Shown here: positions 55,224 through 60,061 of the stretch, piece by piece | Position numbering within the stretch: the first letter of the stretch is position 1 | Layout: the number at the start of each line of letters is the position of its first letter | NCBI RefSeq assembly: GCF_050320075.1 | Contig: NZ_CP190018.1 | Source: Escherichia coli | GTDB taxonomy: Bacteria; Pseudomonadota; Gammaproteobacteria; Enterobacterales; Enterobacteriaceae | Direction: 5' to 3' (one strand) | DNA: 64,000 nucleotides | Notes under the pieces: model-generated | What the model was told of the DNA's origin: nothing | What the model saw: the letters and a program-made list of their open reading frames with translations, nothing else | The model's database searches: none | Translations under genes and position numbers: made by a program

Positions 55224-55700
55224 ATGAAACTCATCAGTAATGATTTACGCGATGGCGATAAGCTGCCGCATCGTCATGTCTTTAACGGCATGGGTTACGA
55301 TGGCGATAATATTTCACCGCATCTGGCGTGGGATGATGTTCCTGTGGGAACGAAAAGTTTTGTTGTCACCTGCTACGACCCGGATGCGCCAACTGGCTCC
55401 GGCTGGTGGCACTGGGTAGTTGTTAATTTACCCGCGGATACCCGCGTATTACCGCAAGGGTTTGGCTCTGGTCTGGTAGCAATGCCAGACGGCGTTTTGC
55501 AGACGCGTACCGACTTTGGTAAAACCGGATACGATGGCGCAGCGCCGCCGAAAGGCGAAACCCATCGCTACATTTTTACCGTTCACGCGCTGGATGTAGA
55601 ACGTATTGATGTCGATGAAGGTGCCAGCGGCGCGATGGTCGGGTTTAACGTTCATTTTCACTCTCTGGCGAGAGCCTCGATTACTGCGATGTTTAGTTAA
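55224..55700 (+). CDS. ybhB: PEBP-family protein YbhB
   Basis: 158-aa translation; last chromosomal gene before the att site. Confidence 0.85.
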   Translation: MKLISNDLRDGDKLPHRHVFNGMGYDGDNISPHLAWDDVPVGTKSFVVTCYDPDAPTGSGWWHWVVVNLPADTRVLPQGFGSGLVAMPDGVLQTRTDFGKTGYDGAAPPKGETHRYIFTVHALDVERIDVDEGASGAMVGFNVHFHSLARASITAMFS

Positions 55701-55789
55701 TCACTCTGCCAGATGGCGCAATGCCATCTGGTATCACTTAAAGGTATTAAAAACAACTTTTTGTCTTTTTACCTTCCCGTTTCGCTCAA

Positions 55790-55804
55790 GTTAGTATAAA
55801 AAAG
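55790..55804. other. Lambda-type att core (attR junction): ttagtataaaaaagc
   Basis: Reverse complement of the 15-bp lambda core GCTTTTTTATACTAA, flanked on the ybhB side by bacterial-arm sequence cgctcaag. Confidence 0.85.
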
Positions 55805-55947
55805 CTGAACGAGAAACGTAAAATGATATAAATATCAATATATTAAATTAGATTTTGCATAAAAAACAGACTACATAATACTGTAAAACACAACATATGC
55901 AGTCACTATGAATCAACTACTTAGATGGTATTAGTGACCTGTAACAG
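55805..55947. promoter_or_regulatory. Lambda attP P-arm (Int arm-type, IHF, Xis, Fis site region)
   Basis: ~140 bp matching, as far as I can recall it, the reverse complement of the lambda P arm (...cgtaaaatgatataaatatcaatatattaaattagattttgcataaaaaacagactacataatactgtaaaacac...ctgtaacaga). Confidence 0.75.
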
Positions 55948-55950
55948 AGC

Positions 55951-55990
55951 ATTAGCGCAAGGTGATTTTTGTCTTCTTGCGCTAATTTTT
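55951..55990 (+). terminator. sib / tI-like intrinsic terminator distal to att
   Basis: ttagcgcaag ... cttgcgctaa hairpin followed by tttttt on + strand, in the position of lambda sib/tI. Confidence 0.6.
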
Positions 55991-56510
55991 TGTCATCAAA
56001 CCTGTCGCACTCCAGAGAAGCACAAAGCCTCGCAATCCAGTGCAAAGCTTTGTGTGCCACCCACTACGGCCCGCATAACCAGTAAGAAGATAGCAGTGAT
56101 GTCAAACGACGCAGCAGTCTTCTTTTCTTTCACACTTTCCCCCACCCAGCATACATACCTTTCTGCCACAGCTGAAATGAATGTCTATTATGAGCAAGGA
56201 GAGGAAATTCGTAATTGTCATCATCAATGGCGATTTGCTGGTACTATCTGTGTTAAGTAATAGGAAAACAAGTAACTGGAGAAAGATTTGATTTACACAC
56301 TATTATAGCAGTTAATAGTTTAAGCTATTGACACTTTAACTATTTTGCATAAAGTTAAACATAACAACCCCATAAATTGATAATGCAAGAGAGTACTGAA
56401 CTAAGTATTTTAGCTCTACCATATTGCCCAGGCAGTATAATATATGATACATTAAAAAATTAGATTTAATTTACTTAAACATCCTAATCACACTAAGAAT
56501 GAAGAAATAA

Positions 56511-57389
56511 ATGCTGTTTAAATATTGTCCTATTAATGAGTATTCAATTAAATCTCTAGTGGAAAACAAACTATATCTTAATCATCTCAACATGATGAAT
56601 GACAGTGCTGAAGGTTTTTGTAAGATAATAAGTGGTTTCCCAGATTATAATGAAAAAACTGAGAGATATGATTTGATAATAAAAACATGGTGTGGAGAGT
56701 CTGGCTGGCTACCTTCTGAATATGAATATAACGAATATATTGATTCAATGAGAGAACTGGAACCAAATGTCCCGCAATTGCTGGACTCTGCAAGGATATC
56801 ATGCTTTACGAATACGGCGTTAAACCCTACAATGTGGGCTCATTATGCTAACAACAGAACAGGTATATGTATAGAATTCGATCAAGACAAAATAAGAGAA
56901 CTAGAGGATATCTATATCTTTGACGTCAAATATAAAGATCGCCCTCCGACTATTGATACTGCAGTACTAACATTAATAGCTGATCAGGTGAACTATAATC
57001 ATGATGCAATTTATGATGATTATCAAGAAAAGTTCAAACATCTTTATGAACAAGCATTTGACGAGGGAAGAAATTTGCTTTTGGAAATTTACAATGGAAT
57101 ATTGGCAACTAAATCTCAAGAATGGTCTTATGAACAAGAAAAACGGCTAATATATATTTTATCCTTCTCACAAGAAGACAAATTGGCAAAAAAATATAAA
57201 ACTGGCATAAACATATCACTCCCTGAAGGATGCATTAAAAGTGTTATCCTAGGTGAGAAGACAAGTGAGCATGATAAAAAACTTATAGTTTCAGCTATAA
57301 AAAAACATTCTAAACACATTAAGTTGAAGAGAGCTACAATAACACAAGGCGAATATTTATTATCTATTCGTGATGAAGTTTTTAGCTGA
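56511..57389 (+). CDS. DUF2971-like protein of unknown function (prophage cargo)
   Basis: 292 aa; N-terminal MLFKY...L.ENKLYL...NDSAEG and central SCFTNTALNPTMWAHYANNRTGICIEF match what I recall as DUF2971 hallmarks; visibly AT-rich by eye. Confidence 0.6.
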   Translation: MLFKYCPINEYSIKSLVENKLYLNHLNMMNDSAEGFCKIISGFPDYNEKTERYDLIIKTWCGESGWLPSEYEYNEYIDSMRELEPNVPQLLDSARISCFTNTALNPTMWAHYANNRTGICIEFDQDKIRELEDIYIFDVKYKDRPPTIDTAVLTLIADQVNYNHDAIYDDYQEKFKHLYEQAFDEGRNLLLEIYNGILATKSQEWSYEQEKRLIYILSFSQEDKLAKKYKTGINISLPEGCIKSVILGEKTSEHDKKLIVSAIKKHSKHIKLKRATITQGEYLLSIRDEVFS

Positions 57390-57451
57390 TGGTATTATAA
57401 TCGAACAGATATTTTCTCCTAAGCGTTGCATTTATCCCACGGTAACATATT

Positions 57452-57490
57452 CATACTCAAATATCCTGCGACATGGAAGATTTGAGTATG
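57452..57490 (+). terminator. Hairpin (11-bp stem, 17-nt loop) downstream of the DUF2971-like ORF
   Basis: catactcaaat ... atttgagtatg inverted repeat 63 bp after stop; weak T tract follows. Confidence 0.4.
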
Positions 57491-57678
57491 GTTGTTCTTC
57501 ATGAGCGAAAAGCAGATGTTCGCGCTAAGGTATAATCAATTGGTTGTTAAATAGTTTAAACACAAGCAATGACTAATAAAACAATGCCACAAACCTTATT
57601 ATTTCTAAACTAGCATTTAGCTTTCAGACAATTTATTGATTGTTAATACATATTTTTAATATTTAATTATCATTTATT

Positions 57679-57689
57679 CCCCCCCCCCC
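57679..57689. repeat. Homopolymeric C11 tract
   Basis: 11 consecutive C at 57679-57689; a second C6 run at 57776-57781. Confidence 0.9.
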
Positions 57690-57882
57690 TCATGCTTATC
57701 AAATACTTCACAACAACGGAATTTTAATCCACATTTGTTATCTGTCTCTATCAGATTCATCCATACCCCCCTCCATTATTATTTAATTTCCAGATAAAAA
57801 TCTTCATCCTGTTATACATATAAAAAAGTGCAATATTTAAATAATGATAACAAATTATTGATTTTGCTCACATAAATTTTAT

Positions 57883-57911
57883 TGACAAGATGATAAGCTG
57901 ATATCTACACA
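57883..57911 (+). promoter_or_regulatory. Candidate sigma70 promoter for the zinc-ribbon ORF
   Basis: TTGACA at 57883-57888, 17-bp spacer, weak -10 tacaca; SD aagagg 5 nt before ATG 57935. Confidence 0.4.
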
Positions 57912-57934
57912 TTGTATTTTCTCAAGAGGAATTT

Positions 57935-58348
57935 ATGGCTGACATTGTCACTGGTTTGACCGCACTCAAAACCGCCTTTGATTTAGCAAAAGATATAAAA
58001 AATGCCACTGGCGCATACAATGATGCAGAAATGAGGCTTAAGTTTAGTGAGCTTTATAGCGCGCTATCTGAAGCCAAAATAGAACTGGCTGATACACAGC
58101 TAGAAATGTATGAACTAAAGCTGAAGATCGAAGAGTTGCAAGCTAAGCTTGATGCATCGGACGAGCTTGAATATAGGGAAAACGTATACTGGAGGGCCTC
58201 ACCTATCAATGGCAAACCAAACGGTCCTTTTTGCCCAAGATGTTATGAAAGTTCAGAGAAGAAGCTATCTTCAATGAGTCAAGTAACGGGGCATGCAACT
58301 ATTGCTGGAAAATACAAATGTAATACTTGTAACGCCTACGTTAGATAA
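57935..58348 (+). CDS. Small coiled-coil protein with C-terminal CxxC...CxxC zinc ribbon (prophage cargo)
   Basis: 137 aa; heptad-like LKFSELYSALSEAKIELADTQLEMYELKLKIEELQAKL; CPRCY ... CNTCNAY; good SD. Confidence 0.6.
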   Translation: MADIVTGLTALKTAFDLAKDIKNATGAYNDAEMRLKFSELYSALSEAKIELADTQLEMYELKLKIEELQAKLDASDELEYRENVYWRASPINGKPNGPFCPRCYESSEKKLSSMSQVTGHATIAGKYKCNTCNAYVR

Positions 58349-58684
58349 AAAGCCGTTATGGGGCTGGGACGGAGGCTCAAATCCTCTCGTGCAAAAATTC
58401 AGCTAAAACTTTTGTTCAGGAGACTCTGAAAGATACCAAGAAGTCTGCTGACGAGTGGTTTATTTACTAATTAGCACGTAAAATCTATTATGGCTGGAAA
58501 TCATTCAATACTCGTACTATCGAAAGTTCGCCAGCCGACAGCAAAACGCTATTGCATGGCAGGGATTGCAGGCCTCTCGATATTCGGTGCTAAGGATGTA
58601 TCAACACGGTTCAGCAGAACCCGATGCGTCTTCAAAACCGCAGCAACGATATCTCTTCCTCCGTTCCATTTACAGCCACCTTTT

Positions 58685-58993
58685 TCACCCTCGATTAACC
58701 AACAACCAGACCAGAAGACACGCTACCACCGGCACAGCAAAATCCATCAGGCTTGCCATATCCCACGCGCGTGGGTCAAAACCGCCCCACCACGGCATAT
58801 TCATTCGCTTGCCATGCCCGAACATTTCGATCCAGCGATATTCTGCCTGGGTGTGTTCACGCGCAATGAAGAACGTACAACCGGCTATCGCCCCGTAAGC
58901 CCAGTTCCCGGTAAAAAGACCAATCAGTAGCTGCGCAGCCACAGCACAAAGCGCATGAAGGAAAGGTGTTATATCCATTTTCATCCCACCCAA
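58685..58993 (-). CDS. Small predicted membrane protein (prophage, unknown function)
   Basis: 102 aa with two hydrophobic segments; several alternative Met starts; lies just downstream of the tail-fibre genes. Confidence 0.5.
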   Translation of the reverse strand: MGGMKMDITPFLHALCAVAAQLLIGLFTGNWAYGAIAGCTFFIAREHTQAEYRWIEMFGHGKRMNMPWWGGFDPRAWDMASLMDFAVPVVACLLVWLLVNRG

Positions 58994-59020
58994 TAAAACG
59001 GGGCGCTCGGCCCCTTAATA

Positions 59021-60061
59021 TTATTTAGACGCAAGCGCCGCATCAATTGCAGATAATCTTTGTCTTAATTCTGCGTTTTCTTCTTCCAGTGCTGTTATTC
59101 TGTCGTCTGACTCTCTGGCTACCTGAACAAGCAAGCCAGTAACACCAGAATAATCTACTGTGTAATAACGTTCACCTTCTTCACCTTCCGATCCGCTCGC
59201 ACCGTCCTGATATTTCATTACGGAACCTACAACTTCTGGGATTGCTTCCAGAGCTTCCTGTGCAATGACACCAGCATAGGGCATACCGTTTTCTTTAAGC
59301 GTGTATGTATAGCCGTTCATTTTACGGATGCGGTCGGTTGCATTATCGATCACCTGAATGTTGTCTTTCAGATCCCGGTCGGAATGCTGGTTAAATGCGG
59401 TGGCATGACATGCACCATTAACGCTTAACATATAGGTGTTATCGGTATTTTTCTGCGCATAGAACATATAAGCGCCACCATCAACACCGACTTCATAAAC
59501 AACAGGACGGCTGGAGTTGCCCCACAATTGAGCAGTAACACCAGCATAAGCGGTTCCCTGTGTGTTTAATGTCATGGTTGACCCATGATTGGCATATTTG
59601 ATCTGTAATGTGTCGGTGTAATCAAATTTAATAAGCGCGTTACTTCCACGCTTGCTGTATGACATAAGGCAGTTACCCATTTTGAGGTATCCGCTGTCAC
59701 CGGGAAAAATCATCGTACCGCCATAAAGGTTGGTAAAGTCCCAGCAAATGTTTGTCCCGTTATCGTTCAGGTTAAGGCGCGCCATTGCGTTACCTGGACT
59801 GTCTATCCATTTTTTGAGGTATAGTTCGCAATATGCATCCTCAACACCTGCCGTCCTGTGAGTTGAGCGGAGTTTTCTCCCAAATATAGCTCCGCTAGTT
59901 GGCAATACCTGCTGATACCATGAAGCAGACCAGTCACCAACGGTTTCATCTTTGCTGTCTACATATGATTTTGTTGCGTAGCTTCCTTGATCGTTTTTTA
60001 ATTTGCTAACGTCGGATTTTAGCGTTTTGATGTCATCAGGAATTACTGTCGATGTAGCCAT
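59021..60061 (-). CDS. Tail fibre / spike-like protein with C-terminal intramolecular chaperone (peptidase S74-like) domain
   Basis: 346 aa; C-terminal SDRDLKDNIQVIDNATDRIRKMNGYTYTLKENGMPYAGVIAQEALEAIPEVV plus terminal coiled coil (ITALEEENAELRQRLSAIDAAL). Confidence 0.65.
   Translation of the reverse strand: MATSTVIPDDIKTLKSDVSKLKNDQGSYATKSYVDSKDETVGDWSASWYQQVLPTSGAIFGRKLRSTHRTAGVEDAYCELYLKKWIDSPGNAMARLNLNDNGTNICWDFTNLYGGTMIFPGDSGYLKMGNCLMSYSKRGSNALIKFDYTDTLQIKYANHGSTMTLNTQGTAYAGVTAQLWGNSSRPVVYEVGVDGGAYMFYAQKNTDNTYMLSVNGACHATAFNQHSDRDLKDNIQVIDNATDRIRKMNGYTYTLKENGMPYAGVIAQEALEAIPEVVGSVMKYQDGASGSEGEEGERYYTVDYSGVTGLLVQVARESDDRITALEEENAELRQRLSAIDAALASK

Follow-up and report, generated by a model that had tools for sequence, protein, structure and literature searches.

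The sequence analysed here, referred to as the window, is a 64,000-nucleotide stretch of the Escherichia coli contig NZ_CP190018.1 (assembly GCF_050320075.1). The host genes bioF, bioB, bioA and ybhB occupy 51.6–55.7 kb of the window and are followed by the att-lambda core and then by the right end of a prophage. Situated 2.1 kb inside this end, as measured from the att core, is a gene for a 137-residue protein that resembles Rip1, the prophage protein 'ring interacting pore 1'; the gene is called Rip1-like below. It runs antisense to the tail genes and lies in the equivalent of the b-region, with the att site on one side and the tail-fibre genes on the other. The features of the locus are:

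55791–55805, minus strand: att-lambda core GCTTTTTTATACTAA, the right prophage boundary (exact match; 0.01 expected by chance)
56511–57389, plus strand: gene for a DUF2971 protein of 292 residues (PADLOC PDC-S31, E = 9.5e-38; phrog_1762)
57390–57934, plus strand: spacer of 545 nt 5′ of the Rip1-like gene, AT-rich (about 29–33% GC)
57924–57929, plus strand: Shine-Dalgarno sequence AAGAGG, read from the sequence, 5 nt 5′ of the ATG
57935–58348, plus strand: coding sequence of the 137-residue Rip1-family protein WP_001550856.1 (open reading frame list and RefSeq)

The open reading frame starts with ATG and ends with TAA, and RefSeq carries the identical coding sequence as WP_001550856.1 under the label 'hypothetical protein'. 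The start is kept as MADI or MTDI in all orthologues aligned. Both the open reading frame and the good ribosome-binding site of the preliminary description hold, the AAGAGG being placed 5 nt ahead of the start codon. The same description proposed an upstream TTGACA as a promoter element; the hexamer is indeed present at 57882–57887, inside the 545-nt spacer, but no acceptable −10 hexamer lies 16–18 nt 3′ of it, and a consensus scan found no plus-strand promoter-like site across the spacer, so that its promoter role is unsupported though not refuted. The spacer is nonetheless the presumed promoter region, and independent expression of the Rip1-like gene is plausible. The consensus scan gave no terminator directly 3′ of the gene. 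Transcription of the gene runs against that of the late tail genes, and its product is therefore probably present in the lysogen.

Also in the spacer, which separates the Rip1-like gene from the DUF2971 gene, is a poly-C tract (57679–57689). Its length is 11 C in the window and strain GTEN_23 but 10 C in strains 144 and ECSC054; the 3-kb sequences around the tract are otherwise identical between these strains. The difference in length could reflect slipped-strand variation or a homopolymer sequencing error.

The prophage can be followed in full in strain GTEN_23, the genome of which is identical and in which a complete lambda-like prophage occupies the interval between ybhC and ybhB. Its early side comprises int, xis, exo/bet/gam, kil, cIII, ral, sieB, the repressor gene, O/P and Q, and its late side the lysis genes, a Nu1-type small terminase gene, head and tail genes, lom and the tail-fibre genes. 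The lambda homologue of the resident Nu1-type small terminase matches only Nu1-type chains in the PDB, and neither entry 9oox nor gp16 (see below). The GC content falls to 28–35% at 56.1–58.1 kb and is 41% over the gene, as against 51–58% in the flanking host genes; the Rip1-like gene thus sits in a block of foreign composition.

Several further observations concern this prophage. Directly downstream of the Rip1-like gene, RefSeq annotates a DinI pseudogene fragment that lacks its N-terminus (58393–58470, plus strand) and then a 28-residue tail-fibre-assembly fragment (58549–58635, minus strand), both of which look like scars of recombination in the b-region; an intact DinI gene occupies the corresponding place in the Citrobacter orthologue loci. 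An Rfam scan of 55700–59100 returned nothing but one sub-threshold match, to IS009, outside the gene (58592–58704, minus strand; 41.6 bits, E = 1.7e-7, where the gathering score is 117), in the interval that separates the tail-fibre-assembly fragment from a 102-residue phrog_1443 gene. A repeat scan gave nothing convincing. One of the 45 E. coli genomes with the gene, that of strain ECSC054, has an IS5 between the att site and the DUF2971 gene (L035 774–1754). In the GTEN_23 prophage, P and the nin region are separated by an inverse-autotransporter gene of 3.9 kb; the prophage also has iss, a bor-like gene for a serum-survival lipoprotein, as well as sieB, ral and a TraR/DksA gene (coordinates for these extras: L036 16486–20394 and 26864–27157).

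The gene is conserved well beyond this prophage. A search of 5.8 billion proteins yielded 40 relatives, mostly of exactly 137 residues and 51–99% identical, from Citrobacter, Kosakonia, Pantoea and Klebsiella as well as Erwiniaceae. HMMER, run exhaustively over 1.84 billion cluster representatives (50% identity level), returned 1,218 proteins at E ≤ 0.001, and nearly all of the best 150 of these have 130–160 residues. Among 5,426 complete E. coli genomes, 45 carry the gene, in every case intact and at least 99% identical. Comparison with orthologues from Citrobacter, Pantoea and an Erwiniaceae genome gave pN values of 0.14–0.24 against a pS of about 0.78, which is saturated; a pN so far below a saturated pS marks a protein-coding gene under strong purifying selection.

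AlphaFold2, run on 26 orthologues (mean pLDDT 79), predicts two helices (residues 2–24 and 30–73), a beta-hairpin (78–87) and a small C-terminal domain with both CxxC knuckles. On the DNA, the parts of the protein map as follows:

57938–58153, plus strand: N-terminal helical half, composed of helix 1 (residues 2–24) and the long helix 2 (residues 30–73), from AlphaFold2
58166–58345, plus strand: C-terminal beta-hairpin and Cys4 zinc-ribbon-like domain, from AlphaFold2 and the conserved cysteines
58232–58243, plus strand: knuckle 1, Cys100–Cys103, within the motif GKPNGPFCPxCYE
58319–58330, plus strand: knuckle 2, Cys129–Cys132, from cysteine conservation

The coiled coil that had been placed at about residues 30–75 corresponds to the predicted helix 30–73. 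The C-terminal Cys4 site described from the sequence is likewise present, with Cys100, Cys103, Cys129 and Cys132 invariant in the 26 close and 116 distant relatives; its spacing had been given as x22, and is instead CxxC-x25-CxxC (counted from Cys103 to Cys129). The alignment of close orthologues has 32 invariant columns, including the four cysteines and Lys94-Pro-Asn-Gly-Pro98, and the motif GKPNGPFCPxCYE is invariant except for Glu105, which is kept in at least 90% of orthologues. In the alignment of 116 diverse relatives, the four cysteines are the only invariant columns.

Conservation is unevenly distributed along the chain. Both alignments, close and broad, are best conserved in helix 1, in the first half of helix 2 and at the first zinc knuckle (the top-residue frequency among close orthologues is 0.84 over residues 1–24 and 0.87 over residues 30–57). 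Variation is greatest in the latter half of helix 2, in the beta-hairpin and in residues 106–126, the insert that separates the knuckles. The conserved helical half may serve as an oligomerisation or effector module and the variable hairpin and zinc-ribbon region as a sensor surface; the combination of a conserved and a variable half would fit an effector joined to a diversifying sensor that tracks a phage target. The protein is acidic (pI 5.5). Transmembrane-like segments are absent from it and from Rip1 (the N-terminal 18-mers have a mean hydrophobicity of about 0.4 in each protein), so that any pore would have to come from a templated oligomer.

The preliminary description recognised no known family. 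This is correct for Pfam, NCBIfam and PADLOC 2023, none of which gives a significant match for the window protein: Pfam yielded only weak coiled-coil and zinc-ribbon noise for the protein and its 116 relatives, and PADLOC only a chance-level match to TniQ (E = 0.031). It does not hold overall, because the protein falls in PHROG 1244, the family that contains Rip1. The match to phrog_1244 (annotated 'unknown function') is full length, covering residues 3–136 with E = 1.3e-16, and the Rip1 sequence of PDB entry 9oox matches the same family at E = 1.9e-50. Two other assignments were considered and set aside. For the IS1595-type zinc ribbon PF12760, only one of the 116 relatives reaches E ≤ 0.001, and for DksA/TraR, the zf-dskA_traR Pfam model hits neither the window protein nor any of the 116 relatives.

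The relationship to Rip1 can also be recovered by direct comparison. A profile built from the close orthologues alone, searched against PDB sequences, aligned with 9oox chain L from end to end but weakly (E = 0.055). The HMM of the 116 diverse relatives matched the same Rip1 chain at E = 2e-6 (profile positions 7–135, chain residues 16–155), hhalign of the family profile against Rip1 gave a probability of 95% and E = 3e-8, and BLASTP of the window protein against Rip1 gave 29% identity end to end with E = 2e-8 and the cysteines aligned. The two proteins have the motif CxxCYES in common. Because coiled-coil composition can inflate such scores, a shuffle control was run. Scored with the family HMM, Rip1 and the Pseudomonas phage homologue D3112 orf25 reach 30.8 and 30.9 bits, respectively; the best of 2,000 shuffles of Rip1 in which the cysteines were fixed and each half was permuted separately reached 23.4 bits, and among 2,000 full shuffles of each protein the highest score was 9.9 bits (Rip1) or 4.4 bits (D3112 orf25). 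The real Rip1 score is therefore above all 4,000 Rip1 shuffles.

Judged by these sequence comparisons, the homology of the window protein to Rip1 is genuine, if distant, and the protein's membership in the family is well supported: the profile match is accompanied by the family architecture and by the position of a stand-alone accessory gene of a temperate phage. Fold searches did not have 9oox among their matches. By tblastn, the window protein matched none of 50,697 phage records at E ≤ 1e-3, whereas the Rip1 sequence matches 56 records of the same collection, which indicates that the window subfamily has diverged too far to be reached by pairwise search in that collection.

Rip1 provides the functional reference for the family. 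By tblastn, the Rip1 chain of 9oox shows 100% identity to gp37 of the lambdoid Escherichia phage HK446 (YP_007111990.1), the gene of which lies on the opposite strand (locus L012, 4968–5462) between N and an anti-restriction gene upstream of cIII. The 9oox assembly is composed of 12 Rip1 chains and 11 chains that match the T4 gp16 small terminase (E = 4e-106). What is said here of the Rip1 mechanism is drawn from the PDB record, a meeting report and one sentence of a citing preprint. As related in the meeting report, Rip1 is a prophage protein that blocks incoming phage, and 12 Rip1 monomers cap an 11-mer of the terminase, an arrangement reported there as suggestive of a pore-based mechanism (PMC12908700); the preprint sentence includes Rip1 in a list of small-terminase-sensing defence systems (10.64898/2026.04.30.721860). 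No PADLOC 2023 model matches Rip1. In the listed RefSeq E. coli genomes with a copy of Rip1, its label is still 'hypothetical protein'.

The neighbour immediately upstream of the Rip1-like gene is itself a candidate for defence. PDC-S31, the PADLOC model that the 292-residue protein matches, is a single-gene defence candidate. DUF2971 is described as having an ADP-ribosyltransferase-like fold related to DarT and AbiGi (PMC12522546), and Aristaios, a lactococcal DUF2971 protein, is a tested abortive-infection system (PMC11381338). The orthologue loci bear on whether the two genes belong together. In Citrobacter, Pantoea and the Erwiniaceae genome, the Rip1-like gene is again found between the prophage end and the tail-fibre genes, with neighbours that vary from locus to locus (a 246-residue phrog_29550 protein; SRAP, S24 and DinI; UmuDC-like genes; an HTH gene); one Citrobacter copy (L004) directly follows chromosomal genes, and a copy of 51% identity lies in a P2-like prophage next to gtrABC. 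In 18 loci on IMG/VR viral contigs, found with the close-orthologue alignment, the gene is mostly 0–2 kb from the contig end. No DUF2971 relative occurs in any of these loci, whether in Citrobacter, Pantoea, the Erwiniaceae genome, the P2-like prophage or the 18 IMG/VR contigs. The changing neighbours and the lack of a DUF2971 relative indicate that the Rip1-like gene is a self-contained single-gene cassette that acts alone, and the prophage end seems to carry two independent defence candidates. The earlier suggestion that the gene is expressed independently of the upstream open reading frame is probably right, given the 545-nt spacer and a DUF2971 neighbour that is found in no other locus.

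Taken together, these results favour a reading of the window protein as a divergent Rip1-family anti-phage protein of the prophage, which would act as sensor and effector against a ring-shaped assembly protein of a superinfecting phage. By analogy with Rip1, we consider this reading probable, as we do a function in defence; the gene is most likely an anti-phage defence gene and not a regulator. Transferred from Rip1, the mechanism would run as follows. The small soluble protein would idle in the cytoplasm until a superinfecting phage begins to assemble a ring-shaped packaging protein, which in the case of Rip1 is the small terminase oligomer. The variable C-terminal beta-hairpin and zinc-ribbon domain would then dock onto the ring, and the ring would template a crown of about 12 protomers by way of the conserved N-terminal helices. 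Such an assembly could both sequester the terminase ring and form or nucleate a pore, so that the infected cell would collapse before progeny are made. The defence function, the identity of the sensed ring and the pore step are all carried over from Rip1 by analogy. Since the resident prophage encodes a Nu1-type small terminase, unlike gp16, triggering of the protein by its own phage need not be expected.

Some observations weigh against this reading. The identity to Rip1 is only 29%, and the profile of close orthologues alone finds Rip1 at E = 0.055. The ring-contact region differs, in that the window protein has no KWEEEKKNYEMHTP insert and a different hairpin, so that the trigger cannot simply be transferred from one protein to the other. 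The window protein is acidic, its N-terminal helix is more polar than that of Rip1 and it has no transmembrane-like segment; 9oox was missing from the fold-search matches, and the consensus scan found no promoter. Of the functions proposed in the preliminary description, that of a protein-binding phage sensor comes close to the mark, given the homology to Rip1, and nothing supports that of an anti-defence protein.

A Rip1-like fold might instead serve the phage's own life cycle, without sensing of a foreign ring or formation of a pore, for example by modulating packaging, timing lysis or excluding superinfection by another route. D3112 orf25 lies between orf24 (a DNA-binding protein gene, phrog_756) and the large terminase gene, a position that may point to a connection with that phage's own packaging module, and in the sources on Rip1 consulted here the pore step is no more than suggested even for Rip1 itself. 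Yet D3112 orf25 is on the strand opposite the packaging genes, and the enterobacterial prophages never have the gene in the packaging module: it is found at the att-proximal cargo end, among DinI, UmuDC-like, SRAP and gtrABC genes, and the resident prophage has a small terminase of the Nu1 type. We regard such a role as unlikely. A zinc-ribbon regulator, dimerised through the coiled coil and binding DNA or RNA through the Cys4 site, is improbable to a greater degree. Residues 95–133 weakly match the IS1595 transposase zinc ribbon (PF12760; i-E 0.0027, 18.1 bits), and the pairing of a coiled coil with a C4 finger superficially recalls DksA/TraR; against this, Pfam, NCBIfam and the PDB gave no significant match to a regulator, zf-dskA_traR gave no hit, the protein is acidic (pI 5.5) and its full-length match is to Rip1, a binder of a protein ring. 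The nucleic-acid-binding role that had been entertained from the sequence is accordingly not borne out, neither a regulator match nor the pI speaking for it.

It could also be imagined that the protein and the ADP-ribosyltransferase-like DUF2971 protein form a two-gene system, in which the former would be the second component, an adaptor, sensor or antitoxin. The genes are adjacent, on the same strand and in a common AT-rich block of foreign composition, and the upstream protein matches the defence candidate PDC-S31. That candidate is, however, a single-gene one; the 545-nt spacer separates the two genes, no other orthologue locus has a DUF2971 relative, and the Citrobacter copy L004 directly follows chromosomal genes. 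Such a partnership, raised in the preliminary description, finds no support in synteny, and we judge it very improbable. As to membership in the PDC-S31 system itself, the window protein has no hit of its own to that model and no partner synteny. The last alternative, a chance open reading frame or a decaying remnant without function, could appeal to the pseudogene fragments (the DinI remnant and the tail-fibre-assembly fragment) around the gene and to the recombination-scarred character of the region. It is contradicted by a pN of 0.14–0.24 where pS is saturated, by orthologues of 137 residues across several genera and 1,218 clusters at 50% identity, and by the intact, at least 99% identical copies in all 45 E. 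coli genomes with the gene; the conservation data effectively refute it, and its probability is close to nil.

The reading as a Rip1-family defence protein would give a hypothetical gene a concrete, testable function. Rip1-type proteins joined the known phage defences only very recently and are invisible to Pfam, NCBIfam and PADLOC 2023. Their family is nevertheless large, with the 1,218 clusters at 50% identity reached from a search with a single sequence, and E. coli has at least two forms of it: Rip1 proper (at least 90% identity), in 96 of the 5,426 complete genomes, and the window variant, in 45. In the lambdoid prophage at att-lambda, the divergent Rip1-like gene stands beside an ADP-ribosyltransferase-like DUF2971 defence candidate, and it offers a second sequence, 29% identical to the first, with which the evolution of ring recognition and its specificity can be studied. 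The helical half of Rip1 is shared and the hairpin and zinc-ribbon surface differs, which raises the possibility that another ring is the target. Somewhat speculatively, the 137-residue enterobacterial subfamily might recognise a ring other than T4-type gp16, for example the small terminase of a different group of phages or a portal. Were this so, Rip1-like proteins would constitute a modular family of ring sensors (at least 1,200 clusters at 50% identity) with diversified specificities, and the window gene would be a handle on a second one.

Compared with known systems, the protein has a superficial likeness to DksA/TraR, since these too are small proteins in which long helices are followed by a Cys4 site; they differ in the spacing of the cysteines (x25 in the window protein), and the window protein has no zf-dskA_traR domain and no significant sequence match to them. 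Avs1–3, which sense the large terminase, and TerI, which senses the small terminase, have no sequence or domain relation to the window protein. The likeness here is one of principle, namely direct recognition, at the protein level, of a conserved packaging component late in infection. As large STAND NTPases, the Avs proteins have their effectors in separate domains, whereas the window protein is a single chain of 15 kDa with no enzymatic domain.

Closer relatives are the homologues D3112 orf25 and those of DMS3 and MP38, from Pseudomonas phages (Casadabanvirus), which are phrog_1244 members with the same architecture. Their match to the window family profile is as good as that of Rip1 (30.9 bits for D3112 orf25). 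They differ in their length of 178 residues, in the genus of their host and in their place inside the packaging module on the opposite strand. For a relative of a terminase-binding protein, the position of orf25 (L013 2962–3498) in these Mu-type phages is striking.

The closest parallel is with Rip1 itself (HK446 gp37, PDB 9oox), from which the window protein departs in several respects. Rip1 has a 14-residue insert before the hairpin and a C-terminal tail, both absent from the window protein; it is basic (pI 8.6), whereas the window protein is acidic (pI 5.5); and its N-terminal helix has a Gly/Ala-rich stretch where the window protein has Lys12, Asp16 and Lys19. The Rip1 gene is a neighbour of N in the pL early region, and the window gene lies at the att-proximal end of the b-region. 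Rip1 binds T4 gp16, and the ring that the window protein would sense might be a different one. In common, the two are similar in size (164 and 137 residues) and belong to PHROG 1244, and both have the N-terminal helix, the long helix, the beta-hairpin and the CxxC...CxxC domain with its CxxCYES motif; each is encoded by a single opposite-strand cargo gene of a lambdoid E. coli prophage.
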